A DNA stretch of 64,000 nucleotides from Gemmatimonadota bacterium (lineage in GTDB: Bacteria > Gemmatimonadota > Gemmatimonadetes > Palauibacterales > Palauibacteraceae). Position 1 is the first letter of the stretch, and the number at the start of each line of letters is the position of its first letter. Below, in pieces: positions 6,004-45,827 of the stretch. Where the stretch lies: contig OZ220691.1 in assembly GCA_965116475.1 (NCBI GenBank), forward strand, positions 1,568,001-1,632,000, in the 5' to 3' direction. The notes below the pieces were generated by a model that ran no database searches, was not told where the DNA came from, and saw only the letters and a program-made list of their open reading frames with translations. Both the position numbers and the translations under genes were made by a program.

Positions 6004-6095
6004 TTGCAGAAACACGACCATGAACATTGCAAAACTATGATCAATCGTATTGCAGTAGATCGACCGTAGACGTTGCAAATCTCCAAACACGCTGC
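6004..6095. repeat. Degenerate tandem array, 4 x 23 bp, TTGCA-anchored
   Basis: TTGCA at 6004, 6027, 6050 and 6073; GAYC at unit positions 13-16 in the first three units; AT-rich. Confidence 0.75.
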
Positions 6096-6108
6096 CAGAT
6101 TCACGGTC

Positions 6109-7413
6109 ATGGCACGTAACGATCGATCCGTTCCGGAATACGTCCTCCGCGTCGCGGACTCCGAGTTGACGCGGCGTCTCGCGTCGGCGGGCGCTGTCGT
6201 CATCGAGGGCCCCCGCGTCTGCGGCAAGACGACGACGGCCCGGCAGGCGGCATCGAGCGAAGTGCTCATGGATGTGGATCCATCCGTGCCCGAGGCGATG
6301 GCGGTGGACCCGCGGCTCGTCCTGGAGGGTTCCCCACCCCGGTTGATCGACGAGTGGCAGGTGGAACCCGACATCTGGAACTACATCCGCCGGGCCGTGG
6401 ATGACCGCCCCGGCAAGGGGCACTTCATTCTCACGGGATCGGCCGTCCCCCCCGACGACATCACGCGGCACACGGGCGCGGGGCGGATGGGCCGACTTCG
6501 GCTTCGACCCATGTCGCTGTTCGAGTTGGGTCATGCGAAGGGCCGCGTCCCGCGGGAGCGTGCAGGGGGGCGAGTCTCGCTGAAGCGCCTGCTTCGCGGA
6601 GAGCCCGCGCCGAGCCTGAAGCACGAGATGTCACTCACCGAGATCGCGGAACTGCTGTGCGTCGGCGGCTGGCCGGGACACCTCCGCGGTCGGTCCGTGG
6701 AAGACGCGATGGAGGCCAACCGGGACTATCTGGACGAGATCTGTCGGACCGATATCCGACGGGTCGACGGCATCGCGAGGGATCCCGAGCGGGTGCGGCG
6801 CTTCCTGGACTCCGTCGCGCGCAATACGGCGACGTGCGCCACCGTCGCGACGATGGCCGAGGACGCGGGCGGTTCGGACATCTCGCTCTCGAGCGAGACG
6901 GCGCACTCGTACCTGAAGGCGCTCGAACGGCTCATGGTCGTCGAGCATCAGCGGCCGTGGGCGCCGCACCTGCGCTCGCGGTCGCGGCTGAGGAACAGAC
7001 CGAAGCGGCACTTCGTCGACCCGTCCCTGGCCGTAGCGGCGCTGGGTGCGGAACCGGAGCACCTGCTGCGCGACCTTCAATGGATGGGGTTTCTCTTCGA
7101 GTCCATGGTCGTGCGGGACCTGCGCGTCTACGCACAGGCCACGCGCGCGACCGTCTACCACTACCGCGACAACACCGACCTCGAGGTGGACGCGGTCGTG
7201 GACGGAGGGCCGAGCAGGTGGGCGGCTTTCGAGATCAAGCTTGGCGCCGGACGGATCGAGGAGGCGGCGCGGACCCTCCTCAAGTTCGCGGACCGGGTCG
7301 ATACGGAACGCACCGGCAAACCGGCGGCGCTGGGCGTGATTACGGGAAGTCCGTACGGCTACCGGCGGCCGGATGGCGTAAGCGTCATCCCCGTCGGCGC
7401 GCTCGGGCCCTGA
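6109..7413 (+). CDS. ATP-binding protein, AAA_14 + DUF4143 (AAA ATPase - wHTH - PD-(D/E)xK-like)
   Basis: Walker A GPRVCGKT, Walker B LIDEWQ, ILTGS, KRHFVDP, C-terminal EVDAVV...FEIK. Confidence 0.9.
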   Translation: MARNDRSVPEYVLRVADSELTRRLASAGAVVIEGPRVCGKTTTARQAASSEVLMDVDPSVPEAMAVDPRLVLEGSPPRLIDEWQVEPDIWNYIRRAVDDRPGKGHFILTGSAVPPDDITRHTGAGRMGRLRLRPMSLFELGHAKGRVPRERAGGRVSLKRLLRGEPAPSLKHEMSLTEIAELLCVGGWPGHLRGRSVEDAMEANRDYLDEICRTDIRRVDGIARDPERVRRFLDSVARNTATCATVATMAEDAGGSDISLSSETAHSYLKALERLMVVEHQRPWAPHLRSRSRLRNRPKRHFVDPSLAVAALGAEPEHLLRDLQWMGFLFESMVVRDLRVYAQATRATVYHYRDNTDLEVDAVVDGGPSRWAAFEIKLGAGRIEEAARTLLKFADRVDTERTGKPAALGVITGSPYGYRRPDGVSVIPVGALGP

Positions 7414-7414
7414 T

Positions 7415-7443
7415 CGGGCCGGGGCAGGTGGCGCCCCGGCCCG
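7415..7443. terminator. GC-rich hairpin between convergent genes
   Basis: CGGGCCGGGGC-7 nt-GCCCCGGCCCG, perfect 11-bp stem; no clear U-tract. Confidence 0.5.
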
Positions 7444-7457
7444 TCAAGGTTTGATCG

Positions 7458-9527
7458 TCAGGAGGAGGCGTCGTCGGAGACGGCGCGGGCTTCGTCGTCG
7501 TCGTGCGTGCCGAAGCGCTCGAACCAGGTGCGCAGGAAGAGTTGCGTGCGCAGGAAGTTCGACGGCGTGCTGCTCGTCCCGTGCCACTCGTTGCGGAAGC
7601 GGATCATCGCCGTCGGCACCCGCTCCATCTTGAGCGCCTGGTAGTACTCCTCCGTCTGCGGCATCGGCGTCCGCAGGTCCATCTCCCCCGTCATGAGCAT
7701 GGTCGGCGTCGTCACGTTGCCCACGTACATGAGCGGCGAGCGGCGCAGGTGCTCCGAGGGGTCGTCCCACGGGAAGTGCTCGAAGTTGCGGTACCAGCCG
7801 GGCCCGTCCGTCGTTCCCACGAACGAGAGCCAGTTGGTGACCGGGCAGTTCGCCGAGGCGGCGCGGAATCGGTCGGTGTGGCCGACGACCCATGACGTCA
7901 GGACGCCGCCGCCGGAGCAGCCGTACACGAACATGTTGTCCTCGTCGACATAGCCGCGGCCGATGACCTCGTCGACGCCCGCCATCAGGTCGTCGAAGTC
8001 CTTCGACGGATAGGCGTTCTTGATCGCGTTGCCGAAGTCCGTCCCGTACCCGGAGCTGCCGCGCGGGTTGGTGTAGACGACGACGTAGCCGTTCGCGGCG
8101 TGCTCCTGCCAGCCGAAGTTGAACCCGGTGTTGTACATGCCGTGCGGGCCACCGTGGATCGACAGGATGAGCGGATACTTCTTCGACGGGTCGAAGTCGG
8201 GCGGCTTCACGATCCAGCCCTGGATATCCCAGTCATCCACCGACTTGTACCAGATCTCCTCGACCTCGCCGAGCGTGACCCCGGCCAGCACGTCGTCGTT
8301 CACGTTCGTGAGCTGCATGACGTTGCCGCCGCTTTCAAGATCGAAGGAGACGACGTCGCCGGGACCGTGCGGCTCGGTCAGCGTGCCCATGGCCTTCCCG
8401 TCCTCCGTGAAGGAGCTGAGGCTCAGGAGGTGGTTGCCGCTCGTGACCTGGGTCACGCCCCCGTCCACGGACGCGAAGTGCAGGTTGCGGGTGCCCTCGC
8501 GGTTCACGTTGAAGTAGACGCCGCTCCCATCCGGGGCCCACATGAGCTGCGGGCTCCCCCGCATGCCGCGGTCGAAGTCGCCGGAGATCTGCCGCACGCC
8601 CGAGCCGTCGGGGTTCATCACGTAGAGGTGCGAGTTGCGGTACGTGTCGTCGTTCCAGTCCTGCCCGGAGTACGCGACGAGGCTGCCGTCGGGCGAGGGA
8701 TAGGCGCCCCCGTCCGGGCCGTGGCGCGTGGTGAGCTGCCGGATCGCGCCCGAGGCGACGTCGACCGCGTAGATCTCGGACTCGCGCCAGTTGTACTCGG
8801 AGTCCTCCTCCCGCAGCGACGAGAAGTAGATCTCGCTCCCGTCCCGGCTCCACTGGGGGTTGCCGTGATTCCACATGCCGTCGGTGAGCTGGCGCGGCGT
8901 ACCGCCATCGGCGGGGACCACGAAGATGTGGGAATGGCCCTGGTCGACGTACCCGCGGCGGTCCTGACGGTAATCCATGCGGGTGACGATCTTCGGGCCC
9001 TCCGTCCACTTGGCGCCGTCGGGGCGGCTCGGCAGGTCGATGGGCCAGCTCTCCGCGTCCTCCACGAGCATGGTGAAGGCGATGTGCGTGCCGTCGGGGG
9101 ACCAGCGCAGGCTGCCGGGCGAGTGCTCCAGCCGCGTGATCTGGGTGGTCGCGCCCTCCGCGTCCATCCAGCGGACCCAGATCTGCGAGCCCTCCGGATC
9201 GCCCGAGGCCGTGTAGGCGATACGCGTGCCGTCCGGCGACCAGATCGCGCCGGACCCGTCGAGCAGTTCCCGCTTGCGGGTGCCGTCGGCGTTCATGATG
9301 TAGAGCGTGGACTCCCAGCGGTCGTTGATCTGGTCGATCCATCCCTTCGTGTAGACGACGTGGCGGCCGTCCGGGGAGATCTGGGGGTTGGAGACTCGTT
9401 CCCAGTCCATGTACATGTCGAGGGAAAGGGTTCTCATCCCGTCGCCGTTCTGGGCCGAGACCGGGGCCGGGGCGACGAAGAGGAGAAGAAGCAGGCTCGC
9501 GGCTGCGAAGCGGGCGGCACGATACAT
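7458..9527 (-). CDS. S9 family (acylaminoacyl/dipeptidyl) peptidase with PD40 propeller
   Basis: WSPDG repeats, IHGGP, GCSGGG nucleophile motif, DLR, EWHG; signal peptide. Confidence 0.92.
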   Translation of the reverse strand: MYRAARFAAASLLLLLFVAPAPVSAQNGDGMRTLSLDMYMDWERVSNPQISPDGRHVVYTKGWIDQINDRWESTLYIMNADGTRKRELLDGSGAIWSPDGTRIAYTASGDPEGSQIWVRWMDAEGATTQITRLEHSPGSLRWSPDGTHIAFTMLVEDAESWPIDLPSRPDGAKWTEGPKIVTRMDYRQDRRGYVDQGHSHIFVVPADGGTPRQLTDGMWNHGNPQWSRDGSEIYFSSLREEDSEYNWRESEIYAVDVASGAIRQLTTRHGPDGGAYPSPDGSLVAYSGQDWNDDTYRNSHLYVMNPDGSGVRQISGDFDRGMRGSPQLMWAPDGSGVYFNVNREGTRNLHFASVDGGVTQVTSGNHLLSLSSFTEDGKAMGTLTEPHGPGDVVSFDLESGGNVMQLTNVNDDVLAGVTLGEVEEIWYKSVDDWDIQGWIVKPPDFDPSKKYPLILSIHGGPHGMYNTGFNFGWQEHAANGYVVVYTNPRGSSGYGTDFGNAIKNAYPSKDFDDLMAGVDEVIGRGYVDEDNMFVYGCSGGGVLTSWVVGHTDRFRAASANCPVTNWLSFVGTTDGPGWYRNFEHFPWDDPSEHLRRSPLMYVGNVTTPTMLMTGEMDLRTPMPQTEEYYQALKMERVPTAMIRFRNEWHGTSSTPSNFLRTQLFLRTWFERFGTHDDDEARAVSDDASS

Positions 9528-9756
9528 GATGACCTCCTGCGAAGAGCGGGAACTGTGCAGATCTGCAACGTACACGCGGGCATGTGGGGAAGGAAACCAT
9601 CGGGGACGGCGTCGACGCTGGCGTGCCGGGCCGGTGGGACCGCAGCTTGCATGCACAGTCATCGGTAACAGGGCTGGTGACACCGGGCTGGTGACAGGGG
9701 GGGACGGGGCGGCGGACGGAGCGGCACGGCAGGACGTAACTCCAGGAGAGAACCTC

Positions 9757-12129
9757 ATGAATCGGCGAATTCATCCCTTCGCGTTCCTGGCGGGTCCCAC
9801 TTTGGCGGCGGGGCTGGCGCTGGCGGTGCCCCAGGTCGCGGGCGCGCAGCAGTTCGGCGGCGCGCTGGCCGTGAGCGGCGACCAGGTGCTGGTGGGCGAA
9901 GCGGGCAACGGCACGATGTCGGGCATCGTGTGGGTCTACGGCCTGACGGCCTCGGGCTGGGCGGAGACGGGGCAGGTGACGGTGTCCGACGAGGTGCGCG
10001 TCCCGGACGGGTTCGGCCGATCGGTCGCCGCGCAGGGGGACTGGCTGTGGGCGGGGGCGCCGCTCGAGGCGGACGGGGCCGGCGCGGTCTACGTGTTCAG
10101 GTCCGACGGGCTGGGCGGCTGGGAGCGGGTGGCCCGGCTCGAGGCGCCGGAGGGCGCGCGGGCGTTCGGGAGCGCCATCGCGCTGATGGAGGGCGCCGCG
10201 ATCGTGTCTTCCCCCGGGGCGGACGACGGACGGGGGGCCGTGTTCTCGTACAACGTTGACTCGGAAGGAGCCGCATCCCCGGGCGCGGCGCTGCGGCGGA
10301 CGGACGGCGTGGCCACCGAGGGGTTCGGCACGGCGCTGGCCCTCGACGGGGAGACGCTGCTCGTCGGCACGCGCGAGTCCGGCGATGCGCCGCCCGTGGT
10401 GTTCGCCTTCGCGCGCGGCGGTTCGGGGGCCTGGACGGCGACCGGGACGCTCGAAGCGCCGGCGCTCCAGGAACGCAGCGGCTTCGGCGCCTCGCTCGCC
10501 GTGCGCGACGGCTTCGCGCTCGTGGGCGCCCCGACCCTCAGGGAGAGCGGCGGGGCGGTCTTCGCCTTCTCGCGGGGAGCCGACGGCTGGGCCATGGAGG
10601 CGCGGCTCGGCCCGCTCCTGCCCGAACCCAACGCGCAGTTCGGGTCCTCCATCGGCTTCGACGGCGACGACATCCTCATCGGGGCGCCGGGCAGCGGCCT
10701 GGGCGCCGGCACCCTGTACGCCTACCGCCGCGACGCCGCGGGGCAGTGGCGCGAGGCTTCCATCCTCCTGCGCTCTCCGCTCGGCGAGCGCGCCGGTTTC
10801 GCCGGTGCCGCCGCGCGATCCGGCGACCACCTCGTCATCGGCGCGACGGGCGTCGACTCGGGCGCCGGCGCCGCCGTCGTCTACGAACGGTCCGCCGGTG
10901 GCTCGTGGGAGGAGAGCGGCACGCTCGTCAACGACTACCGCGGCTTCCCCGCCATCGCCGGCGAGGAGATCGAGTGCAGCGACGGGCACGCGGACGTCTT
11001 CGAGTGCCGGGACGTGAACATCACCGCCTTCATGCCGATCAAGGACCTCGGCGGCACCCGCGCCACGCGCGTCAACGACATCTGGGGCTGGACCGACCCG
11101 GAGACGGGGCGTGAAATCGCGATCGTCGGGCGCACCGACGGCACGTCGTTCGTCGACGTCAGCGACCCGTACCACCCGCGCTTCCTCGGCGACCTGCCCG
11201 CCACCGAGGGCTCGCGGCACATGATCTGGCGCGACATCAAGGTGTATCGCGACCACGCCTATATCGTCGCGGACGCCGCGCTGGAGCACGGCGTACAGGT
11301 GTTCGACCTGCGGCAACTGCGGGACGTGGGCGCCGAACCCGTGACGTTCGAGGAGACGTTCCTCTACGACGGGATCCACTCGGCCCACAACATCGTCATC
11401 AACGAGGAGACCGGCTTCGCCTACGCCGTCGGGAACAGCGGCGGCGGCGAGACGTGCGGCGGCGGCCTCCACATGATCGATCTCGAGGATCCGGCCCAGC
11501 CCGTCTTCGCGGGCTGCTTCGCGCAGGAGGGGACGGGACGCCGGGGCACGGGCTACGTGCACGACGCGCAGTGCGTCACCTACCGCGGCCCCGACACCGA
11601 GCACGCCGGCAAGGAGATCTGCCTCGGCTCGAACGAGACGGCGTTCAACATCGCCGACGTGAGCGACAAGGACGCGCCGGTCGGCCTCGCCACGATCGAC
11701 TATCCGAACGTCGCCTACGCGCACCAGGGCTGGCTGACCGACGACCACCGCTACTTCTACATGAACGACGAGGGGGATGAGCCCCAGGGTCTGGTGGAGG
11801 GCACGCGCACGCTGGTGTGGGACGTGACGGACCTCGACGATCCGATCCTCGTCACCGAGTACATCGCGGAGACGACGGCCACCGACCACAACCTCTACAT
11901 CGTCGGCGACCTCATGTACCAGTCGAACTACTCCGCCGGCTTCCGCGTCCTCGACATCTCGGACCCCGAGAACCCGGTCGAGATCGGCTTCTTCGACACC
12001 TCGCCCTACCAGGGCGGCGCGTCGTGGAGCAACTACCCCTACTTCGCGAGCGGGACGATCGCCGTGACGGGGACCGGAGACGGACTCTTCCTGCTCAAGA
12101 ACATGGCGAGACCCCGCCTCGTGCCGTGA
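9757..12129 (+). CDS. Choice-of-anchor B family protein with N-terminal FG-GAP repeats
   Basis: FGxxxA...VGAP repeats; NDIWGWTDP, WRDIKVY, YVHDAQC, YAHQGW, DHNLY; SD AGGAG. Confidence 0.88.
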   Translation: MNRRIHPFAFLAGPTLAAGLALAVPQVAGAQQFGGALAVSGDQVLVGEAGNGTMSGIVWVYGLTASGWAETGQVTVSDEVRVPDGFGRSVAAQGDWLWAGAPLEADGAGAVYVFRSDGLGGWERVARLEAPEGARAFGSAIALMEGAAIVSSPGADDGRGAVFSYNVDSEGAASPGAALRRTDGVATEGFGTALALDGETLLVGTRESGDAPPVVFAFARGGSGAWTATGTLEAPALQERSGFGASLAVRDGFALVGAPTLRESGGAVFAFSRGADGWAMEARLGPLLPEPNAQFGSSIGFDGDDILIGAPGSGLGAGTLYAYRRDAAGQWREASILLRSPLGERAGFAGAAARSGDHLVIGATGVDSGAGAAVVYERSAGGSWEESGTLVNDYRGFPAIAGEEIECSDGHADVFECRDVNITAFMPIKDLGGTRATRVNDIWGWTDPETGREIAIVGRTDGTSFVDVSDPYHPRFLGDLPATEGSRHMIWRDIKVYRDHAYIVADAALEHGVQVFDLRQLRDVGAEPVTFEETFLYDGIHSAHNIVINEETGFAYAVGNSGGGETCGGGLHMIDLEDPAQPVFAGCFAQEGTGRRGTGYVHDAQCVTYRGPDTEHAGKEICLGSNETAFNIADVSDKDAPVGLATIDYPNVAYAHQGWLTDDHRYFYMNDEGDEPQGLVEGTRTLVWDVTDLDDPILVTEYIAETTATDHNLYIVGDLMYQSNYSAGFRVLDISDPENPVEIGFFDTSPYQGGASWSNYPYFASGTIAVTGTGDGLFLLKNMARPRLVP

Positions 12130-12581
12130 GCCCGGCAGCCCACGACGAAACCCCCGCTTCGGGCTTCGGGGGCCGACCGATCATCCTCTTCGACGGCGTC
12201 TGCAACCTGTGTGCGGGCGCCGTCCGCTTCATCATCCGCCGCGACCGCCGCGCGCGCTTCCGGTTCGCCGCCCTCCAGTCCGACGTGGGACGCCGGATCC
12301 TCGCGGCGACGGGGGTCGAGACACCCGGACCCGGCGAGCCTCCGCGGTCGCTGGTTCTGTTCGCGGGGGGAAAGGTCTATCGCGGCAGCACCGCCGCCCT
12401 GCTCATCCTGGCCGGGCTCGGCCGCGCCTGGCCGTTCGTCGCGACGCTCCTCGTCATCCCCTCCCCGCTTCGCAACCTCGTCTACCGCTTCGTAGCCCGG
12501 AACCGCTACCGCTGGTTCGGCAGGAAGACCGCCTGCGAACTCCCCCCGACCGACGAAAGCTGGCGCTTCCTCGACGCCTGA
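12126..12581 (+). CDS. DCC1-like thiol-disulfide oxidoreductase family protein (YuxK-like)
   Basis: FDGVCNLC, FAALQS, YRFVARNRYRWFG; GTGA overlap with the upstream gene. Confidence 0.9.
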   Translation: MSPAAHDETPASGFGGRPIILFDGVCNLCAGAVRFIIRRDRRARFRFAALQSDVGRRILAATGVETPGPGEPPRSLVLFAGGKVYRGSTAALLILAGLGRAWPFVATLLVIPSPLRNLVYRFVARNRYRWFGRKTACELPPTDESWRFLDA

Positions 12582-12586
12582 CGTCG

Positions 12587-12619
12587 ATCCGGGTGCGTCC
12601 GCACCGGACACTCCGGATT
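12587..12619. terminator. Hairpin between convergent genes
   Basis: Nested pairs ATCCGG/CCGGAT, GTG/CAC and TCCG/CGGA. Confidence 0.4.
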
Positions 12620-12620
12620 T

Positions 12621-13028
12621 CTACAGGGAACCCCGTGGGGCGACCCACTCGGTCGCCTGTCCGGTGGCCGCCGCGATGGTGTCAAAGTCCGCATCGTAGT
12701 GAAGCACGGTCATGTCGGAGGCTTCGGCGGCAGCGGCAATGATCAGATCCGCGATCGGCACCCGGTGTTGAGCGCGGCGAGCGAGCAGTCCTTGCACTGC
12801 GATGGCCCGCTGAAACATCGCTTCCGTGAGTGGAACGTGACGGTACGCCAACGCACGCCGGGCCCGCGTTCGCGCGTGCTCCTCGCCATTACGGGTGGAG
12901 TAGAGCACTTCCAGGTCGATGATCGCGCAGGTCGCGGCCTGGCCCGTCTCGATGACCGGCGTGAGTCGTGCCTGGACCCGGGGATGCGCCATGCGGGCCA
13001 GCGCGCTCTTGTCGATAAGGTAGGCCAC
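12621..13028 (-). CDS. vapC: PIN domain toxin, VapC family
   Basis: YLIDKSAL, DLEVLYS, DLIIAAAA, LHYDADF acidic PIN motifs. Confidence 0.92.
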   Translation of the reverse strand: MAYLIDKSALARMAHPRVQARLTPVIETGQAATCAIIDLEVLYSTRNGEEHARTRARRALAYRHVPLTEAMFQRAIAVQGLLARRAQHRVPIADLIIAAAAEASDMTVLHYDADFDTIAAATGQATEWVAPRGSL

Positions 13029-13049
13029 TCGCGTTCGACCTGGACTGGT

Positions 13050-13259
13050 TCAGGAACGCCAGGCGCCGGCCATGACCTGCTCGTTCGATAGTTCGAGCCC
13101 GTCCATCGTCGCCAGTGCCTCGATTTCCTGGCGTCGCGCCTCCCGCCGCAGGACCTCGCGCAAGGCGGAGTCGATCGTCTCCTTGATGGAAGACGTCCCA
13201 AGGAGGGCCCGAACTTGTTCGATGAGCCCGTCGTCGATTTCCACGCTGGTTTTCCTCAC
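13050..13259 (-). CDS. vapB: Type II antitoxin, VapB family
   Basis: RKTSVEIDDGLI...KETIDSALRE; directly upstream of the PIN gene; SD GGAGG. Confidence 0.9.
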   Translation of the reverse strand: MRKTSVEIDDGLIEQVRALLGTSSIKETIDSALREVLRREARRQEIEALATMDGLELSNEQVMAGAWRS

Positions 13260-13285
13260 CCGGCCCCTCCCTGGTCGCCGCTACG

Positions 13286-13313
13286 GATATACAATTTATG
13301 TAAAAAATATATC
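13286..13313. promoter_or_regulatory. AT-rich imperfect palindrome, probable vapBC promoter/operator
   Basis: GATATA...TATATC inverted repeat about 27 nt upstream of vapB. Confidence 0.5.
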
Positions 13314-13334
13314 TAACTCAAGAACGAGAAGATA

Positions 13335-15155: not shown

Positions 15156-15226
15156 ATTTTTTATGCTTCTCATGCTTCGTCCCTGGATCGGTGTTTCGGG
15201 GGCGCCGGCGTGCAGCGGGCCGGCGT

Positions 15227-15751: not shown

Positions 15752-15874
15752 TCGCACCTCCGCTTCGCTGGGCCGCGCGTGTCTTCAGCGGTCTGGCAGC
15801 CCGTGGCTGCAAGGGACGATAGGTCCAACCCCGGCGCCTTTCCACCGCGGCTTTGTCCCGCAACGTCTTCGGCC

Positions 15875-15892
15875 ACGTTCCCGCGGGAACGT
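15875..15892. repeat. Perfect palindrome ACGTTCCCGCGGGAACGT (parS-like)
   Basis: Same core recurs at 29510 and 29583. Confidence 0.7.
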
Positions 15893-33909: not shown

Positions 33910-33916
33910 GTGGGGC

Positions 33917-36477: not shown

Positions 36478-36610
36478 CCGAAAACGCATCTGAACTCTCT
36501 CCTCGTGACAGAAGAAACCCGCCGCCCCAATCTAGCCGGGGGGCGACGATGCCTCCAAGACGTGCCAAGTACCCCGTGCCCGGTTCCCCGGAGACGCGCG
36601 ATGGACCGTA

Positions 36611-38398: not shown

Positions 38399-38409
38399 CC
38401 GGCCCGGGC

Positions 38410-38465
38410 CCGCGACTACGCCGGGGGCCGCGACTACGCCGGGTCCGCGACTACGCCGGGTCCGC
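38410..38465. repeat. 3 x ~17-bp tandem repeat CCGCGACTACGCCGGG
   Basis: Triplicates the stop-codon region of the DUF6165 gene. Confidence 0.85.
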
Positions 38466-38870
38466 CTCCGACTCGGCGGAGGCATGTGACTTCTCTTCGA
38501 GGATGGCGGAGCCGTAGTCCTCGCTGAGGACGCGCTTGAGGCGGTGGCGTTCGTCGTTCAGACGGTAGACCTGCCGCGCCGCATCGATGAAGTCGGAGCC
38601 GAAGTCGCGGGCACGTTCGAGAGCGCGCAACTTGTCCTCGACATCCCATATGCCCCGGTTCACGGCTTCCAGTTCCCCGAGACGCTCGGTGACGCGGAGC
38701 GGGGCTTCCTCGAGCGGCCCGATCGTCCGCTCGCAGACCTTCCGGAGGCGTTCGAGTTCGGCGTTCACGTTCGCGAGCTTCCGGCGGTCGCGGATGCGGG
38801 CCCGTTTCAATCGGAGGATCGTGATGCGGTCGATGAGTTCGCCGGCGGAAACCGGGATTTCGATATTCAC
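38451..38870 (-). CDS. DUF6165 family protein
   Basis: PVSAGELIDRITIL, IWDVED, ARQVY..ND.R, EEKS. Confidence 0.85.
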   Translation of the reverse strand: MNIEIPVSAGELIDRITILRLKRARIRDRRKLANVNAELERLRKVCERTIGPLEEAPLRVTERLGELEAVNRGIWDVEDKLRALERARDFGSDFIDAARQVYRLNDERHRLKRVLSEDYGSAILEEKSHASAESEADPA

Positions 38871-38899
38871 GCACCGAAGATAAGGGGAGAGAGGACGCG

Positions 38900-39940
38900 G
38901 TGAGGATAGGGCTCGTGGGGTTCGCGGGCGCCGGCAAGACGACGGTGTTCAACGCGATGACGGGACTCGGCGTCCCGGTCGGGTTCGGCGGCGAGGTGCG
39001 GCTGGGGACGGTGCGGGTTCCGGACGAGCGCATCGATGCGCTCAGCGCCCACTTTTCCCCCCGCAGAACGACGTACGCGGAGATGCGGTTCTGTGACATC
39101 CCAGGGGAGCACGGCGCGGCGAGCAAGGGCCTGTCGCCGCGCGGGCTCCAGCAGATTCGCGACCAGGAGGCGCTCTGCCTCGTCCTGAGGGACTTCGACA
39201 ACCCCGCGCTCGCGGACCCGCCGGACGCGGAGGGCGAACTCGAGGCCTTCGCCACGGAATGTCTGCTCTCGGATCTCGACATCGTCGAGCGCCGGCTGGA
39301 CCGGGCGCGGCGCGAGGGAGCGGACGCGGTCGAGATCGCCGCCTTCGAACGGGCGCTTGAGGCGCTCGAACGCGAGCAGCCGCTGCGGACCGTCCCGCGG
39401 GCGGAACTGGACCGCGCGCCGTTCCGCGGCTACGGCCTCCTGACGGATCGTCCCCTGCTCGCCGTGCTGAACCGCAGCGAGGATCGCGCCGGGGAGCCGC
39501 TACGGCCGGCGCTCGCCGCGCGACTCGCCGCGATGGGGGCCGGCGGCCTGGCGTTGTCCGCCCCCGTCGAGGCGGAGATCGCCGACCTCGACCCGGACGA
39601 CCGGGCCGCCTTCGTGGAGGCGCTCGGCCTGCGAGAACCGGCCCTCGCCCGCTTCATCCGCTCCGCCTACGGGCTCCTCGACCTCATCTCCTTCTTCACC
39701 GTCGCCCCCGTCGAAGTCCGCGCATGGACGATCCGGCGGGGCACTCGCGCCAGGCGGGCGGCGGGCCGGGTCCACTCCGACATGGAGCGCGGCTTCATCC
39801 GCGCGGAGGTCATCCCCTACCAGGTGTTCGCGGAGCACGGCTCCGAGCAGGCCGTGAAGGAGGCGGGCCTGCTGCAGGTCGAGGGCAGGGACTACGTCGT
39901 CGAGGACGGCGACATCCTCCACATCCGCTTCAACGTCTAA
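38900..39940 (+). CDS. ychF: YchF-like ATPase (DUF933 C-terminal TGS domain)
   Basis: GFAGAGKTT, VPDERID, LISFFT, AGRVHSDMERGFIRAEV, EGRDYVVEDGD, RFNV. Confidence 0.85.
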   Translation: MRIGLVGFAGAGKTTVFNAMTGLGVPVGFGGEVRLGTVRVPDERIDALSAHFSPRRTTYAEMRFCDIPGEHGAASKGLSPRGLQQIRDQEALCLVLRDFDNPALADPPDAEGELEAFATECLLSDLDIVERRLDRARREGADAVEIAAFERALEALEREQPLRTVPRAELDRAPFRGYGLLTDRPLLAVLNRSEDRAGEPLRPALAARLAAMGAGGLALSAPVEAEIADLDPDDRAAFVEALGLREPALARFIRSAYGLLDLISFFTVAPVEVRAWTIRRGTRARRAAGRVHSDMERGFIRAEVIPYQVFAEHGSEQAVKEAGLLQVEGRDYVVEDGDILHIRFNV

Positions 39941-39975
39941 CCCGCCCCCCCAAGCCTCCGCATCGCTTGCTGCCC

Positions 39976-40041
39976 TTAAAAGAAGCAGGGGCCCCCGAGA
40001 GGAGGCCCCGCGCCCTGCGATCGAAACCACAGGGGGTGTTG
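39976..40041 (-). ncRNA. Candidate small RNA
   Basis: TTGATC-N17-TAGCTT upstream; UUCG-capped 9-bp hairpin; GC hairpin followed by a U-rich tail. Confidence 0.5.
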
Positions 40042-40046
40042 GAGGC

Positions 40047-40075
40047 AAGCTAGGACTCATCGCGAGCGAGATCAA
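40047..40075 (-). promoter_or_regulatory. Sigma70-like promoter TTGATC-N17-TAGCTT
   Basis: Exact 17-nt spacer between hexamers. Confidence 0.45.
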
Positions 40076-40100
40076 GCAACAGGAACGTTCCGGGTGCCTC

Positions 40101-41177
40101 CTACCCCTCGAGCAGGGTTTCGATGTGGGCGGCGGTGGCGAGCGCGGTGCCGTCGAGGTTGTAGCCGCCCTCCAGCAGCGAGACGACGCGGCCGTCGCAG
40201 CAGGTGTCCGCGTAGTCCATCGCGGTGCGCGTCATGCGCCGGAAGGCATCGTCCGTGAGCGCGAAGCAGCCCAGGAGGTCGTCGACGCGGCTGTCGAAGC
40301 CCGCGGAGAGGATGACGAAGTCCGGGTCGAAGGTGGCGACGGCGGGCGAGAGCGTGTCGTCCCAGCGGGCCAGCATGTCGGCGTCGGTGGCGCCGCAGTC
40401 GAGGTGCACGTTGATGTTGAGTCCGCTTCCCTCGCCCTCGCCCGTGAGGGCGGGGTCGCCCGTGCGTGGATAGGCGGCCCAGTCGTGGGCGGAGAAGAAG
40501 AGCACGGACGGATCATCGTAGAAGGCGTTCTGCGTCGCGTTCCCGTGGTGGTAGTCCCAGTCGATGACGAGGACCCGCTCGAACCCGTGCACCCGCTGGG
40601 CGTATCTCGCGGCCACGGCGGCGTTGCTGTAGTAGCAGAACCCTTCCTCGGCGCCGGTGTTGTTGGCATGGTGGCCGGGAGGGCGGATGGCGCAAAACGC
40701 GTTCCGCACCTGCCCCGCGACGACCGCATCGATGGCGGTCAGCGCGCCGGACACGGCGAGTTCCGCAACCGGGCCGGAGACGTCGAGTTCGCGGATCGAC
40801 GCCACGTGCTCCGGGGTGTGGTGCGCCTCGATGTGCGGCCTCGCTTCGGCGGCCGGCGCGAGCGGCACCGTGGCCTCGTCCAGCCCCCGCGCGACGAGTT
40901 CCTCCCTGATGCGCACGAGGCGGTCGGGAACCTCCGGGGGGCGCGCGCCGTCCGGCCGGATGAGGACGTGGTCCAGGTAGCGGTCGTCCCAAACGAGTCC
41001 GGTCCCCGTGGCGGGGACGGAAGCCGGGCCGCTCGCGGCGCCCTCGGACTCCCCGGCGTCGGGGGCCGGACGGCAGGACCAGGCGGCGGCCGGAAGCAGG
41101 CCGAGGCCCGCGACACCCAGCGCGGCCTCTTCGACGAACTTCCTTCGGGTGCGGGCGAGATCTCTCGGTGTGCGCAT
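40101..41177 (-). CDS. Histone deacetylase family protein with Tat-like signal
   Basis: RPPGHHA, GFCYY, DWDYHHGN, SAGFD, LEGGY; N-terminal TRRKF. Confidence 0.92.
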   Translation of the reverse strand: MRTPRDLARTRRKFVEEAALGVAGLGLLPAAAWSCRPAPDAGESEGAASGPASVPATGTGLVWDDRYLDHVLIRPDGARPPEVPDRLVRIREELVARGLDEATVPLAPAAEARPHIEAHHTPEHVASIRELDVSGPVAELAVSGALTAIDAVVAGQVRNAFCAIRPPGHHANNTGAEEGFCYYSNAAVAARYAQRVHGFERVLVIDWDYHHGNATQNAFYDDPSVLFFSAHDWAAYPRTGDPALTGEGEGSGLNINVHLDCGATDADMLARWDDTLSPAVATFDPDFVILSAGFDSRVDDLLGCFALTDDAFRRMTRTAMDYADTCCDGRVVSLLEGGYNLDGTALATAAHIETLLEG

Positions 41178-41291
41178 GGCGGGACCCCCTTTCCTGAAAC
41201 TAGACTAATCGAGGCTTGACGTGGGTCGCGAGAGCCGTCGCGAGAACCGGTCGCGGGTGTGCGACCGGCCCCCCTGACCTCGAGGTATCCC

Positions 41292-42140
41292 ATGGCCGCC
41301 GGAAACACGCGCAGGAACCCTCCTCTCCGAGCCCTCCGCCTGCTGGCTGGCGTGGCGGGAGGACTGATCGTTTTGCACGGCTGCGGCGGGACGCCGGAGG
41401 AGGAGGAGACCGACGCGATGGCAGAGCCCGAGGAGGCCGCGGACACGCGGATCGTGGACCGGCTCGCCGCCGGGGACGCGGTGTTCGGGCTCTTCTCCGG
41501 CGATCACACGCCCGAGGCCGGCGCCGCCATGGCCGCGAACCGCCCGCTCGATTTCGTGTTCTACTCGCTGGAGTCCGGCCCCTTCGACATCCCCGCGCTC
41601 GAGGGTTACGCCGCCGGGATGTCGGAAGCCTTCGGACACGAAATGCCCCACCCGATGCTGCTGCGCATCCCCCCGATCCGGGACGGGCACGACGAGGCGC
41701 GGGACCGCGCCGCGCAGGGGTTGGCGGCCGGCGTCTCCGGCATCGTCTACCCGCACGTCGAGACCGCGGAGGAGGCCGCCCTCGCGGTGGACGCGCTCGG
41801 CAACGCCGCCTGGCCGGGCAATCCGGACGGCCACCTGATCAGCTTCCTCCTCATCGAGGACCAGGTCGGGATCGACAACGTGCGGGAGATCGTCTCCACC
41901 CCCGGCGTCAGCGCCGTCTCGCCGGGGCCGGGCGATCTGCGGCGCGTCTACGACGGAGACATGGAGAAGGTGGAGGAGGCGATCCAGATCGTGCTCGCCG
42001 CCTGTCTCGAGTTCGACGTGCCGTGCGGGGTCACGGCGGGCGTGGACGACATCGCCACGCGGATCGAGCAGGGGTTCCGCGTGTTCATCGTCACCCAGCC
42101 GGACGCCGTCGCCCTCGGGATGGCCGCCGCCGGCCGTTAG
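41292..42140 (+). CDS. HpcH/HpaI aldolase/citrate lyase family protein with lipoprotein signal
   Basis: PHVETAEEA, LLIED..GIDNV.EI, GPGDL; LIVLHGC lipobox. Confidence 0.82.
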   Translation: MAAGNTRRNPPLRALRLLAGVAGGLIVLHGCGGTPEEEETDAMAEPEEAADTRIVDRLAAGDAVFGLFSGDHTPEAGAAMAANRPLDFVFYSLESGPFDIPALEGYAAGMSEAFGHEMPHPMLLRIPPIRDGHDEARDRAAQGLAAGVSGIVYPHVETAEEAALAVDALGNAAWPGNPDGHLISFLLIEDQVGIDNVREIVSTPGVSAVSPGPGDLRRVYDGDMEKVEEAIQIVLAACLEFDVPCGVTAGVDDIATRIEQGFRVFIVTQPDAVALGMAAAGR

Positions 42141-42165
42141 CCGGGTTTTTCGCGCAGGAGGGAAG

Positions 42166-43701
42166 ATGAAATCGCTCAGCCTGATCACATCCGTCGTCGC
42201 GCTCGGCCTTGTGCCCGCGGGCGCGCTCGCCCAGGAAGGCTCCGGAGGCGGGAACGGCAACGAGCCCGAGCCTTCGCGCTGGGAGACGAACCATTCCATC
42301 GTCGTGGACGGGGAGACCGTCGAATACCAGGCGGTCGTGGGCAGCGTCATCCTCCGCGACAACGAGGAGAACGCGACCGGGGAACTCTTCTACACGGGAT
42401 ACTTCCGGACGAACGGCGGCGACCCCTCCACGCGACCCATCATCTTCGCCTACAACGGGGGGCCCGGGTCGGCCTCCTTCTGGCTCCACATGGGGATCAT
42501 GGGGCCGCGCCGCGTCGTCACGCCCAACGTGGGCCAGCAGGCGCCGCCGCCGTACCCGCTCGTCGACAACGGCTACACCGTGCTCGACATCGCAGACGTC
42601 GTGATGGTGGACCCGATCGGCACCGGGTTCAGCCGTCCCGCGGGGGACGCGGACGGGACCGATTTCTGGGGGATGGATGAGGACGCTTCCTCCCTCACCC
42701 AGTTCATCCGCCGGTTCCTGAGCGAGAACCGGCGCTGGAATTCGCCCCGCTACATCCTCGGCGAGAGCTACGGCACGACGCGATCCGTGCTGCTCGCGCG
42801 CCACCTCCAGAGCGCGAACATTGACTTGAACGGGATCGTGCTCGTCTCCGCCGTCATCGACTTCAACACGCTCCAGTTCCCGGATGGGTCCCACATCGGC
42901 TTCATCACGAACGTCCCGTCCTTCGCGGTCGCCGCCGAGTACCACGACATGCTGCCGGGTGGGCGCCCCGACGATCTCGAGGCGTTCATGAAGGAGGTCG
43001 AGGCGTGGGCGCTGACCGACTACGCGCAGGCGCTGCTCGCCGGCACCGCCGTGGATCCCGAACTGCGCGCGCGGGTGCTGCGGCAGATGCACGAGTACAC
43101 GGGGCTGAGCATGGAGTACCTGGACAAGGCCGATCTGCGCGTTTCGGCGCCCGAGTTCGAGAAGGAACTGCTGCGCGACCGGCGGCTCACGCTGGCGCGG
43201 CTCGACACCCGGTTCACGGGACCGACGGGAGACCTGCTCGACCTGACCCCCGACCACGACGCGCAGTCTTCGGCCATCAGCTCGGCCTACACCTCCCTCT
43301 TCAATACGTACGTGCGGGACGAACTCGGCTACGACGGCGACCGCGAGTACTGGCCCAGCGGGATGGCGCGCCCGTGGAACTGGGAGCGAGAGGGCGGGCG
43401 TCGCGGACCCTTCGGCGGCTCGGCACTCAACGTGGGGCCCGACCTCGCACACGCGATCGAACGCAACCCGCGCCTCGAGGTCCTGCTCATCAACGGGATC
43501 TACGACTTCGCGACGCCGTACTTCCCCATCGTGTGGTCGCTGGAGCAACTCGGCCTGCCGCCGGATCTGCGCGACAACATCACGCGCGACGACTTCGCCG
43601 CCGGCCACATGATGTACGTGGAAGAGAGCCTGCTCCCGCAGTGGCGCGAGACGCTGACGACGTTCATCACCCGCACGGCCGGCGCAAACCTCGTCCCTTA
43701 G
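42166..43701 (+). CDS. S10 family serine carboxypeptidase, exported
   Basis: NGGPGS, DPIGTGFS, GESYG, GHMMY. Confidence 0.93.
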   Translation: MKSLSLITSVVALGLVPAGALAQEGSGGGNGNEPEPSRWETNHSIVVDGETVEYQAVVGSVILRDNEENATGELFYTGYFRTNGGDPSTRPIIFAYNGGPGSASFWLHMGIMGPRRVVTPNVGQQAPPPYPLVDNGYTVLDIADVVMVDPIGTGFSRPAGDADGTDFWGMDEDASSLTQFIRRFLSENRRWNSPRYILGESYGTTRSVLLARHLQSANIDLNGIVLVSAVIDFNTLQFPDGSHIGFITNVPSFAVAAEYHDMLPGGRPDDLEAFMKEVEAWALTDYAQALLAGTAVDPELRARVLRQMHEYTGLSMEYLDKADLRVSAPEFEKELLRDRRLTLARLDTRFTGPTGDLLDLTPDHDAQSSAISSAYTSLFNTYVRDELGYDGDREYWPSGMARPWNWEREGGRRGPFGGSALNVGPDLAHAIERNPRLEVLLINGIYDFATPYFPIVWSLEQLGLPPDLRDNITRDDFAAGHMMYVEESLLPQWRETLTTFITRTAGANLVP

Positions 43702-43803
43702 CTCGCCTCACTTCCACACACGGTTGAGGGCGTGATGACGGCACCGCGCATCATCGGTTCAGGATTGGATCGGATGCGAGCGCGGAGCTATGATGTGGAT
43801 ACC

Positions 43804-44391
43804 ATGCAACTTACCGAAGTCACCTGGCGAGACGCGCAGCGGATGCCCGACGACGGCAACCGCTATGAGGCGATCGGCGGGGTCCTGCACGTGACCGCCG
43901 CCCCCAGGTGGCGCCACCAGGTGGTCGGCGCGCGGCTCCTGAGGAAGCTGTGCGAGTTGTTGGAGGATCCCGGACACGGCGAGGTCGTGCCCACGCCCGG
44001 CGTCGAGTTCCCCGCCACCGGCGAAGGCGTGCAGCCGGACATCCTCTTCGTCTCCAACGAGCGGCGCCACCTCGTCGAGGAGGCGGGACTCGTGGGGGCA
44101 CCCGACCTGGTCGTGGAGGTGCTCTCCCCCTCTACCGCCGAGCGCGACCGCGGCGTGAAGCGGCGGCTCTACGAGCGCCAGGGCGTGCGCGAGTACTGGA
44201 TCGTGGACCTCGTAGAGAACCGGGTCGACGTGTACCGCTTCGGCTCGGGAGCCGGGACGACGGGAACGGAAGTGACCCTCAGGCCCGAGCGCTTCCACCG
44301 CCTGCTCCCCGTCCGCCTCGGTGACACGCAGGTCGGCGCGATCGACCTCTCCGCCATCTTCGCCCCCGGATTCGTCGACACCCCCCGCTGA
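43804..44391 (+). CDS. Uma2 family endonuclease
   Basis: RYEAIGG, QPD, PDLVVEVLSPST, GVREYWIVD. Confidence 0.92.
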   Translation: MQLTEVTWRDAQRMPDDGNRYEAIGGVLHVTAAPRWRHQVVGARLLRKLCELLEDPGHGEVVPTPGVEFPATGEGVQPDILFVSNERRHLVEEAGLVGAPDLVVEVLSPSTAERDRGVKRRLYERQGVREYWIVDLVENRVDVYRFGSGAGTTGTEVTLRPERFHRLLPVRLGDTQVGAIDLSAIFAPGFVDTPR

Positions 44392-44447
44392 CGGACCCCC
44401 GCAGGCCGGACACAACGTCTCCCACGAAGGCACTTTTCGGCGTTTTG

Positions 44448-44562
44448 CCGAATCACCCGCTGAGTTCTGTCCGAATCACCCGCTGGATTCTGTCCGAATC
44501 ACCCGCTGGATTCTGTCCAAATCACCCGTTAGGTTTTTTCCGAATCACCCGTTGGAGATTCT
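44448..44562. repeat. Tandem array, 5 x 23 bp (CCGAATCACCCGCTGGATTCTGT)
   Basis: Units start at 44448, 44471, 44494, 44517 and 44540. Confidence 0.95.
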
Positions 44563-44576
44563 ATTTCAGGATTCTC

Positions 44577-45827
44577 ATGGACTACATCACCCGAATCGTC
44601 GACCAGGAACTCAAGGAACGGCTCGAGGCCACGGGTGCCGTGGTGATCGAGGGCCCGAAGGCCTGCGGAAAGACCGCCACTGCCAGGAATCTGGCGGCAA
44701 GCGAGGTACGGCTCGACGTCGACCGTAACGCTCGGCGCATGGTCGGCGCCTCTCCCGGCACGGTTCTGAGCGGCGACACGCCCCGCCTCATTGACGAGTG
44801 GCAGGTCGAGCCGGACATCTGGAACCATGTGCGGAGAGCCGTGGACGACCGGGGCGCTCCCGGGCAGTTCATCCTGACCGGCTCGGCGGTTCCCGCGGAC
44901 GATGTGACGCGGCACACCGGTGCCGGCCGGATGACACGGCTCAGAATGCGCACATTCTCGCTCCTGGAAGCCGGTCATTCGTCCGGCCGAGTATCCCTCG
45001 CCGCACTGTTGAACGGAGAAGTCCAGAGTTCGGAGCCATCCACTCTCACGGTTCCCGAACTGGCGGAGCTGATCTGCCGAGGGGGCTGGCCGGGGCACCT
45101 CCGCTACCCATTGGATCGCGCGCTGCGCAACAACCGGGGCTATCTGGACGAAATCCGCCGTGTCGATGTCTCAGCCGTGAGCGGAAGACGGAGAGACCCC
45201 GTCAAGGTCGGACGCCTGCTGCGGTCGCTGGCAAGGAACGTGACAACCCCAGCCACCCTCACGACTCTGGTCAAGGATGTGCGCGGAGGCGCCCCGACCA
45301 TGAAGCCGGAGACGGCAGCCGAGTATCTTGAAGCGCTCGAGCGCCTTATGGTCGTCGAGGATCTGCCCGCCTGGGCGCCGCACCTGCGATCGCGGACACG
45401 ATTGAGAAGCACGCCGGTGAGGCACTTCGTCGACCCGTCCCTCGCGGCGGCCGCGCTTAGCGCCACCCCGCAGCGTCTCATTGACGACCTCGAGTACCTG
45501 GGTTTCCTGTTCGAGGCCATGGTCGTCCGAGACCTGCGTGTCTACGCACAGGAGGCCGAAGCGGAGGTGTATCACTACCGGGAAAAGGCGGGCCTGGAAG
45601 TGGACGCGGTCGTCGAGTGCGACGATGGGCGCTGGGCAGCCTTCGAAATCAAGCTGGGAGACCGCTGGGTGGACAAGGGGAAGACCAGCCTGCGCAAGCT
45701 GGCAAGACGCATGATCGAGGGCGGGCGCGGCGCACCCTCCGCGCTGGCGGTGATCATACCGAACGGTTACGGCCACGTGCCGCGTGGCGATGTCGGCGTC
45801 ATCCCCATCGGAACGCTGGGGCCTTAG
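44577..45827 (+). CDS. ATP-binding protein, AAA_14 + DUF4143 (paralog of 6109-7413)
   Basis: GPKACGKT, LIDEWQ, ILTGS, RHFVDP, EVDAVV...FEIK. Confidence 0.9.
   Translation: MDYITRIVDQELKERLEATGAVVIEGPKACGKTATARNLAASEVRLDVDRNARRMVGASPGTVLSGDTPRLIDEWQVEPDIWNHVRRAVDDRGAPGQFILTGSAVPADDVTRHTGAGRMTRLRMRTFSLLEAGHSSGRVSLAALLNGEVQSSEPSTLTVPELAELICRGGWPGHLRYPLDRALRNNRGYLDEIRRVDVSAVSGRRRDPVKVGRLLRSLARNVTTPATLTTLVKDVRGGAPTMKPETAAEYLEALERLMVVEDLPAWAPHLRSRTRLRSTPVRHFVDPSLAAAALSATPQRLIDDLEYLGFLFEAMVVRDLRVYAQEAEAEVYHYREKAGLEVDAVVECDDGRWAAFEIKLGDRWVDKGKTSLRKLARRMIEGGRGAPSALAVIIPNGYGHVPRGDVGVIPIGTLGP

Follow-up and report, generated by a model that had tools for sequence, protein, structure and literature searches.

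Two related genes in the 64,000-nt stretch of Gemmatimonadota DNA analysed here (the window) each lie directly behind a run of 23-bp direct repeats. What reads these repeats, and what do they do for the gene next to them? We followed the arrays through the genome, through sister genomes and through homologs from other phyla, and the most likely answer is that each array is the DNA docking and control site of the protein encoded beside it.

Two arrays and their genes

Array B consists of five 23-bp units arranged head-to-tail at 44448..44562 on the forward strand, with the core CCGAATCACCCG(C/T)TG, and was defined by TRF, core matching and a genome scan. A sixth and most distal unit (44425..44447, same strand) is degenerate and was recognized by repeat comparison (63% over 46 nt). 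TRF reported the array as 44448-44556 with a period of 23, 4.7 copies and 87% matches, and its score of 155 was the highest among the 81 TRF rows of the window. The CCGAATCACCCG core is exact at 44448, 44471, 44494, and 44540 and carries one mismatch at 44517; 14 nt separate the last unit from the ATG of P0002. The array is private to this locus: when the 3.62-Mb genome was scanned at lag 23, with at least 45 of 69 matches required, array B was the sole match. Five exact copies of the unit-B core exist genome-wide, four of them inside array B. With one mismatch allowed, 38 genomic sites were found against 32 expected, and they form no second cluster in the genome.

The gene behind it, P0002 (44577..45827, forward strand), encodes a protein of 416 aa and lies between two convergent genes, 43732-44391 on the forward strand, which we take to be Uma2-like, and 45881-46441 on the reverse strand, presumably rhodanese-like. 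Comparison with empty sites in sister genomes places the extent of the array-plus-gene unit at 44395..45876 (forward strand).

Array A comprises four 23-bp units, also head-to-tail, at 6004, 6027, 6050, and 6073 (6004..6095, forward strand). Two blocks are conserved in it, TTGCA and, about 11 nt later in units 1-3, YGAYC. Array A drew no TRF call at a minimum score of 30, and its lag-23 window score of 0.43 lies below the 0.5 set for an array, so that it was not called as one. The three-in-a-row TTGCA pattern appeared in 0 of 100 dinucleotide shuffles of the window. Five P0001 orthologs (L039-L043) carry TTGCA at -105/-82/-59/-36 or one base less and also keep the second block YGAYC, and it is this conservation of the offsets that makes array A credible. 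Since the orthologs inherit the units one by one, the pattern did not arise by recent duplication. The initial annotation had placed a 23-bp array directly before each of the two paralogs, and both placements hold, one as the top TRF repeat and the other through its orthologs.

P0001 (6109..7413, forward strand) encodes 434 aa with an AAA_14 ATPase domain, a winged helix and a DUF4143 nuclease domain of the PD-(D/E)XK type, an architecture shared by P0002. Directly 3' of its stop codon is a perfect, terminator-like hairpin with an 11-bp stem (7415..7443, forward strand), and a similar hairpin is kept at the empty sites of sister genomes. A possible promoter in and behind the last unit of array A (6073..6101, forward strand) would consist of TTGCAA at 6073-6078 and CAGATT at 6096-6101, with a gap of 17 nt between them and 7 nt from CAGATT to the ATG of P0001. 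The same layout is repeated in the five orthologs, and an mRNA started from this candidate promoter would be leaderless or near-leaderless. A consensus scan found no sigma-70-type promoter at array A or array B, and the promoter positions given here are therefore a reading of the conserved hexamers.

The two proteins are 56% identical. P0001 and P0002 matched Pfam AAA_14 with 46.2 and 39.3 bits (curated cut-off 27) and DUF4143 with 124.8 and 123.5 bits (curated cut-off 28.1). Both matched the PADLOC PDC-S01 model PDLC04790 over nearly its full length (E 3.4e-68 for P0001 and 1.2e-69 for P0002), and these profile matches identify them as members of PDC-S01 (AAA_14 + DUF4143, COG1373), a phage-defence candidate of PADLOC. 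G26, G31, K32, T33, D73, and E357 are invariant among 127 sequences, at least 90% of which also have E74, D343, and K359; we read these residues as the Walker A, Walker B and PD-(D/E)XK catalytic motifs. PDC-S01 has been ranked fourth in abundance among the defence candidates of prokaryotes and described as single-gene and unvalidated (PMC12988326), and the family is listed as a PD-(D/E)XK family of unknown function (PMC3424549). The passages on PDC-S01 in these two articles mention no cis-element. Literature searches on the family and on 23-bp repeats brought up no account of the arrays; supplementary files may contain family-level detail.

The AlphaFold model of P0002 (pLDDT 93.9) has an AAA+ / winged-helix / PD-(D/E)XK layout. 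Its wHTH is encoded by 45198..45344 (forward strand) and contains helices 208-220, 228-235, and 244-256; the recognition helix has its N-cap at residues 243-245. Pairwise alignment onto this model gives residues 262-274 of P0001 (6892..6930, forward strand) as the counterpart of that helix. The best whole-chain fold matches were the archaeal Walker ATPases 2qen (PABY2304, TM 0.45) and 2fna (SSO1545, TM 0.40), with a sequence identity of 13-15%. They were followed by the Cdc6/Orc1 structures 2qby_B, 1fnn_A, 2v1u_A, and 1w5t_A and the DnaA structures 3r8f_A and 1l8q. The initiator matches reached a Foldseek probability of 0.98-1.0 with a TM-score of only 0.22-0.37, which is low because the domain arrangements differ, and RuvB, clamp loaders and NLRs matched too. 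The model bears out the AAA-wHTH-nuclease architecture that had been proposed from the sequence, and Orc1/Cdc6 and DnaA are among its nearest solved folds.

Array and gene across homologs and sister genomes

Upstream arrays accompany homologs in many bacterial phyla and in one archaeon. Within the class, lags 8-40 were compared in the 300 bp upstream of 128 homolog loci, and lag 23 came out best in 104 of them, compared to 0/128 in each of two CDS segments and 4/128 in shuffled upstream DNA. Named records from other phyla showed the 23-bp periodicity in 64/77 cases. After the sets were merged and identical proteins removed, 196 loci remained, and 183 of them passed the span criterion at lag 23; the controls gave 4-28/196 at other lags, 4 and 8 of 195 in two CDS segments and 5/196 in shuffles. 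The initial annotation had named a lack of such enrichment upstream of homologs as one result that would refute its proposal; the excess is large (183/196 vs. 4-8 of ∼195) and favours the proposal.

The geometry of the arrays is strict. Neighbouring units are spaced exactly 23 bp in 566 of 588 pairs, and units share one orientation, on the coding strand, with reverse-strand units in 16/183 loci. Arrays of 3, 4, and 5 units occur in 41, 89, and 36 loci, respectively, and longer ones of 6, 7, and 10 units in 10, 6, and 1. From the array to the start codon the median distance is 55 nt (10th-90th percentile 15-122). Conservation within arrays is highest in two blocks, at positions 22-2 (0.70-0.74) and 8-12 (0.66-0.71), compared to 0.50-0.55 in the spacer, and core conservation exceeds that of the spacer in 114/121 loci. 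Units frequently begin with a -35-like TTGCA or TTGCC. The repeats of the two arrays had been taken as unrelated, which is too simple a view: compared through their homologs, they share period, orientation and the two-block layout.

Array pairing is a trait of this subfamily and not of the whole AAA_14+DUF4143 family: other subfamilies carry arrays in just 5/27 loci. One sister subfamily has a palindrome in place of the array, in which a similar half-site forms an inverted repeat at -51 to -56, as operators bound by dimers typically do. Members of the array-bearing subfamily are seldom found on plasmids (9 of 72,556 records at E <= 1e-30) or among phage sequences (4 of 50,697 records at E <= 1e-10). 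Some members are on small plasmids, and plasmid-borne members with 23-bp arrays occur in Bacteroides ovatus and Collinsella aerofaciens ATCC 25986.

At both loci of the window, array and gene are gained or lost jointly. Some sister genomes carry the array-plus-gene unit, some lack it and some retain an orphan array; the genes are lost without loss of the flanks, and the unit behaves as an insertion or deletion between convergent genes. P0001 orthologs share one site, at which they are 86-92% identical to the window over whole stretches vs. 88-94% for the flank alone. Given the shared site and an identity near that of the flank, they appear to be vertically inherited with repeated loss. Around either gene, no inverted array copy and no target duplication were found, and neither locus of the window lies in an obvious defence island. 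In one pair of orphan arrays without a gene, mismatches numbered 2/40 in the core and 12/52 in the spacer (p = 0.02); better-kept cores in orphans would be compatible as well with a factor that the neighbouring gene does not encode. Orphan arrays and the pattern of presence and absence make the speed of gene turnover visible. All four runs compared with the stretch consisted of contigs and so carry no information on transcript start, strand or level; the two RNA-library runs each contained only a small part of the stretch (0.06 of the sampled words).

Correspondence between winged helix and repeat unit

Paralogs within a single genome have different unit cores, and classes of the wHTH segment go together with classes of the unit core. 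Residues 236-250 of P0002 form the most variable segment, which tracks the repeat sequence. At residue 244, P, T or A occurs with the unit ATCACCC (12/12 loci) and W or N with ATT (6/6), although these residue-base pairs may stem from few independent events. A protein-guided progressive alignment of units across phyla slipped out of register; because of this drift, residue-by-base mutual information was limited to the class-level set, and for the merged set we turned to alignment-free measures. An alignment-free partial Mantel analysis of 182 loci ranked protein windows starting at 234-243 first, with r of 0.17-0.23 vs. a mean of 0.02 (sd 0.07). Among 81 independent sister pairs, residues 235-253 gave a partial rho of 0.27 (p = 0.016), which is equalled or exceeded by windows starting at 148-152 (0.29-0.32) and 47-48 (0.27-0.28). 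After an initial covariation signal, the nuclease hairpin (336-338) was considered as a second reading head, for unit positions 22-1, and was dropped when this signal vanished (0.01) in the independent pairs.

We concluded that the covariation of wHTH and unit, as judged from these sequence comparisons, is modest and not exclusive to the wHTH, and protein segments that evolve quickly could track quickly evolving intergenic DNA without contact. The earlier idea that the repeats co-evolve with the wHTH is thus sustained in part: the cores do differ and change with the wHTH, but the effect is modest and other segments score as high.

Candidate readings of the arrays

On balance, each protein probably binds its own array beside its promoter, as a self-operator or an assembly site. 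In this reading the gene product joins an AAA+ ATPase of Orc1/Cdc6-like type to a winged helix and a PD-(D/E)XK nuclease, and the array would be the set of binding sites for the protein of the adjoining gene, with one protomer on each 23-bp unit. Since the two blocks are about one helical turn apart, they would lie on the same face of the DNA, and the recognition helix of the wHTH would read the second block with its N-terminal end. Rows of 3 to 7 protomers would line up head to tail, with their ATPase domains able to touch. The promoter-proximal unit would fall on or adjoining the -35 region, so that its occupancy would set transcription of the gene itself, most simply as autorepression. A hexamer, with six units matching an AAA+ ring, was rejected as the mode is 4 units. 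An extension of this scheme, to which we give only a small chance, would make the arrays addresses within an extensive natural repertoire of orthogonal protein-DNA pairs. Paralogs would form ATP-dependent head-to-tail filaments on private arrays, one protomer per unit and reading two blocks one helical turn apart; the parked filament would be a resting one-gene immune or selfish nuclease, and orphan arrays would be its remains.

Several other explanations have to be weighed against binding by the gene's own product at its promoter. The array may be mainly a parking or nucleation platform on which an ATP-dependent nuclease oligomer is poised harmless until an invader releases or activates it, with control of transcription secondary. 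The conserved catalytic residues D343, E357, and K359, the PDC-S01 membership, the initiator-type AAA+ fold, the high gene turnover and the 3-7 strictly phased units, beyond the need of a simple repressor, are consistent with such a platform. We nevertheless consider it unlikely, as the loci of the window stand outside obvious defence islands and the array-to-start distance varies widely, as expected for a promoter-linked site. Less likely again is that another factor, or none, binds: the repeats would be promoter architecture (the -35-like TTGC with UP-like DNA) or sites of a separate host regulator, and their likeness to the protein would reflect shared descent. The -35-like TTGCA or TTGCC at the start of many units, the modest covariation not unique to the wHTH, and the cores kept in orphan arrays would fit this, but the exact 23-bp period recurs across phyla of very different G+C and promoter types, the archaeon included, and the link follows the gene subfamily and not the host. 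Moreover, as paralogs in the same genome do not share a core, each paralog would need a separate factor, and genomes hold up to 36 DUF4143 candidates at a first look.

We regard action at the RNA level as very improbable. The array would then belong to the transcribed leader, where the repeats would serve as structural or protein-binding elements of the mRNA, in keeping with units that are all on the coding strand and with the 30-80 nt between array and start codon in many loci, a gap that makes transcription from further upstream possible. However, the conserved -35/-10-like pair of the P0001 group would put the transcription start behind the array, Rfam has no match at array A or array B, the segment that covaries belongs to a winged helix of the DNA-binding type, and the spacers are short, alike and not guide-like. 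CRISPR-like or guide arrays were rejected in the same way, with a variable part of ∼8 nt, copies that are alike and no Rfam family. It is just as doubtful that the repeats are a transposase-binding end of a mobile element, or iterons of an episome origin replicated by the ATPase. Phased sites of 22-23 bp do resemble plasmid iterons and Tn7/Mu ends, the unit is an insertion or deletion between convergent genes, and some members are on small plasmids. On the other side stand the rarity of reverse-strand units, the apparently vertical descent of P0001 orthologs at one site with repeated loss, and the scarcity of the subfamily on plasmids and in phage records. Transposon ends of the Tn7/Mu type were discarded because inverted arrays at both ends and a target-site duplication were not found, and a replicon origin because the genes are chromosomal, between convergent housekeeping-type genes, lost without their flanks and rare on plasmids.

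Binding by the gene's own product has partial parallels in known systems. Plasmid iterons, bound by Rep initiators such as pPS10 RepA, R6K pi, and RK2 TrfA, are direct repeats ∼22-23 bp apart beside the gene of a winged-helix protein, with one monomer thought to bind each repeat, and an inverted-repeat operator variant exists in these systems. Like them, the arrays are phased direct repeats with a period of about two helical turns, next to the gene of a winged-helix protein, but P0001 and P0002 are chromosomal single genes between housekeeping genes, in a subfamily rare on plasmids, and encode an AAA+ ATPase with a nuclease, whereas Rep is a two-winged-helix protein. Archaeal Orc1/Cdc6 and DnaA, which recognize origin recognition boxes and DnaA boxes, respectively, are likewise AAA+ proteins with repeated target sites close to the gene that encodes them, and DnaA autoregulates; these initiators are without a PD-(D/E)XK domain, and our analysis of the arrays brought up no link to replication. 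Winged-helix repressors of the BrxR/CapW type bind repeats over the promoter of a defence-type gene, and are separate small regulators on inverted repeats. In contrast, the predicted DNA-reading domain is here part of the ATPase-nuclease itself, and the sites in this subfamily are direct repeats, 3-7 in number.

A conserved DNA site private to the gene is the first concrete handle on PDC-S01. The array predicts the target of the winged helix, the position of the protein in the cell and how its expression is set. The family would also supply many matched protein-site pairs, with simple-looking changes of specificity, for studies of the recognition code.

The two paralogs and their upstream arrays

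P0001 (6109-7413, +; 434 aa) and P0002 (44577-45827, +; 416 aa), two of the eight DUF4143 genes in this genome, both carry AAA_14 and DUF4143 domains and share 56% identity. Their ATG starts at 6109 and 44577 match the N-termini of homologs; alternative longer TTG-started frames of both genes would run through the arrays. Array B, upstream of P0002 (44448-44562), is unambiguous as a 23-bp repeat array. It ranks first among TRF's 81 rows for the window (44448-44556, period 23, 4.7 copies, 87% matches, score 155), and four of its unit starts carry the exact 12-nt core while the fifth differs from it by one base, in 23-bp steps throughout, with an additional degenerate sixth unit on the upstream side. 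Array A, upstream of P0001 (6004-6095), consists of TTGCA at 6004, 6027, 6050 and 6073. It is absent from the TRF output for the window, and its score of 0.43 at lag 23 (self-matching of upstream DNA at an offset of 23) is below the array criterion used here; its three-in-a-row pattern was found in 0/100 shuffles. The initial annotation of two arrays of 23-bp period, one before each paralog, was confirmed by TRF and core matches for array B and by shuffles and conservation in orthologs for array A.

A genome-wide scan found array B as the sole lag-23 array in this genome at 45/69 matches. The exact unit-B core occurs once outside the array in the genome, and no second cluster of such cores was found there. 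Elsewhere in this genome, at L290 1794-1876, a gene whose product begins signal-peptide-like directly follows two to three 23-bp repeats (CCGTCCAATTGCTG...), far from any DUF4143 gene. The window also holds two cobalamin riboswitch aptamers (Rfam RF00174) on opposite strands, ∼1 kb apart, at 61762-61896 (-) and 62960-63095 (+), with 53.5 and 67.2 bits, respectively.

The AlphaFold model of P0002 (pLDDT 93.9; input alignment A1, 127 sequences) predicts an AAA+ domain followed by a helical lid, a winged helix (helices 208-220, 228-235 and 244-256, then a beta wing) and a PD-(D/E)XK domain whose second strand carries D343 and whose third carries E357/K359. No sequence match to any solved structure was found. 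The nearest folds to the model are 2qen and 2fna, followed by Cdc6/Orc1, DnaA and RuvB. Some of the highest variability in the family falls at residues 236-250, in the winged helix-turn-helix (wHTH) segment.

Pairing of array and gene across the subfamily

The P0002 search matched 76/301 genomes of the class, commonly with multiple copies per genome (the tally includes G018, flagged unpublished, which supplied no locus and supports no other result given here). The class set comprised 131 loci (30 + 100 from the P0002 search, plus P0001's own), or 128 after L012, L111 and L112, with no start codon by the rule used, were dropped. Lag 23 was the top of lags 8-40 upstream of 104/128 loci and lag 24 in five more; the lag-23 controls gave 0/128 in each of two CDS segments and 4/128 in shuffled upstream sequence. 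A named set of 80 loci from a pattern scan, one genome per species, included Gemmatimonadota, Latescibacterota, Actinomycetota, Chloroflexota, Bacteroidota, Spirochaetota, Bacillota, Lentisphaerota, Elusimicrobiota, Proteobacteria and one Methanomassiliicoccaceae archaeon. L200, L215 and L245 were excluded because their upstream sequence was too short, and 23 was the best lag in 64/77. Two of the misses, L209 and L213, match perfectly at several lags simultaneously, which was taken for masked bases.

After removal of identical proteins, the merged set contained 196 loci, and by a span criterion 183/196 were positive at lag 23, compared with 4-28/196 at other lags, 4 and 8/195 in two CDS segments and 5/196 in shuffles. 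The scored loci are kin, so these counts overstate independence; against this, unit sequences vary widely between loci while the period is constant. We concluded that the 23-bp array paired with the gene is a subfamily trait, and the periodicity expected upstream of homologs is clearly enriched. Cultured carriers include plasmids of Bacteroides ovatus (three exact 23-nt units) and Collinsella aerofaciens ATCC 25986 (about four units).

In a wider survey of 301 genomes of the phylum, 27 of the 30 top-ranked Pfam matches could be scored, and lag 23 was best in 5/27; these five loci come from two protein groups (413-419 aa; 27-32% identity to P0002). L001, a third paralog in the window's genome that lies outside the window (30% identity to P0002), is preceded by four TTTTCAATnGGTC units spaced 22-23 bp apart, and its reading frame apparently begins at a non-standard codon immediately 3' of them. 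In another DUF4143 subfamily, direct repeats are replaced by the inverted repeat GGCTGATTCAA-N9-TTGAATTAGCC, whose strict pattern was found at 7/33 loci (L140, L145, L146, L147, L150, L151, and L152), every one at -51 to -56. Since the half-site is similar to the direct-repeat unit of L159, TTGCAATCAGCCG, the site type looks older than its arrangement. On a first look, the number of DUF4143 candidates in some genomes of the class reaches 36, a very large paralog expansion.

Array anatomy and covariation with the protein

Arrays contain 3 to 7 units (mode 4; a single array has 10), with neighboring units exactly 23 bp apart in 566/588 cases, reverse-strand units in 16/183 loci and a median of 55 nt from the last core to the start codon. 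Two blocks are conserved, one at unit positions 22-2 and the other at 8-12, with roughly one helical turn between them, and other positions vary; core conservation exceeds that of the spacer in 114/121 loci. Among five P0001 orthologs, each of four units is individually traceable across species, with TTGCA and the second block retained and the remaining positions drifting; this unit-by-unit inheritance argues for site selection and against recent duplication. The fourth unit of the P0001 group reads TTGCAA, 17 nt, CAGATT or CATATT, 6-7 nt, ATG, and we read the hexamers as a putative -35/-10 pair of a leaderless message. A consensus promoter scan was below threshold at these hexamers and at array B.

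By eye, loci with a common wHTH motif also have a common unit core. Residue 244 (P0002 numbering) as P/T/A goes with unit ATCACCC in 12/12 loci, including Latescibacterota proteins just 66-67% identical to P0002, and as W/N with unit ATT in 6/6 loci, some of whose proteins are 75-76% identical. The mutual-information ranking is led by residue 245 paired with unit position 9, and it also picks out residue 243 paired with positions 10-12. Partial Mantel tests peaked at windows starting at 323-331 and 234-239 on aligned units, and at 234-243 in an alignment-free version on 182 loci. In a stricter test on 81 disjoint sister pairs (partial rho), residues 235-253 of the wHTH gave rho 0.27 (p = 0.016), residues 40-58 gave 0.19 (p = 0.09) and the nuclease hairpin 328-340 gave 0.01 (not significant). 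The proposed correlation between repeat and wHTH was recovered, but it was less clear in sister pairs and not exclusive to the wHTH: windows from 148-152 (0.29-0.32) and 47-48 (0.27-0.28) equal or exceed it. Fast-evolving protein segments may merely track fast-evolving DNA. The covariation therefore supports self-recognition, short of proof.

Gain and loss at the two sites, and a putative role

Both genes sit between convergent genes. The gene upstream of array B (43732-44391) is presumably Uma2-like (putative restriction-endonuclease-like); several paralogs of it are recognizable at the DNA level, both in this genome and in relatives, partly in tandem clusters. For the P0002 site, 16 loci from 36 genomes of the genus were aligned. 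Six sister genomes are empty with a 25-62-nt spacer (L254, L255, L257, L258, L261, and L262). Another four lack the gene but keep array units: L250 and L256 have one, L252 has two and L251 has three, with two distinct deletion junctions among them. RNA-library contigs of a related organism (one run) likewise join both flanks. The P0001 site is occupied in five genomes (L272, L274, L277, L279, and L286), empty in four (L270, L271, L275, and L281) and holds remnants in seven: L278 and L282 retain two units, L276, L280 and L288 retain four (followed in L288 by a 30-codon open frame at the gene's place), L283 retains two units together with fragments of the gene, and L284 retains part of a unit.

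Transposition of array-gene units was considered and rejected. Neither flanking duplications nor inverted arrays were found at the window loci, and occupied P0001 sites resemble the window to much the same degree as the DNA flanking them; we read the pattern as vertical descent with frequent loss. In the only orphan-array pair with a common junction, differences fell at 2/40 core vs. 12/52 other positions (p = 0.02), which hints weakly at continuing constraint on orphan arrays.

P0001 and P0002 are members of the PADLOC candidate PDC-S01, a family described as abundant and unvalidated (PMC12988326) and listed as a PD-(D/E)XK family with function unknown (PMC3424549). Further papers report a nuclease domain related to it from other systems and a plasmid-induced gene of the family in Thermus. 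In the literature searched on DUF4143, PDC-S01 and 23-bp repeats, no description of the arrays was found. The array observation is confirmed and strongly general. The 23-bp arrays resemble the known iteron-type arrays, but here they lie beside an ATPase-nuclease gene. The array is most likely a self-operator or assembly array of iteron type, on which the Orc1/Cdc6-like ATPase-nuclease would act. The arrays belong to a very common protein family of unknown function.
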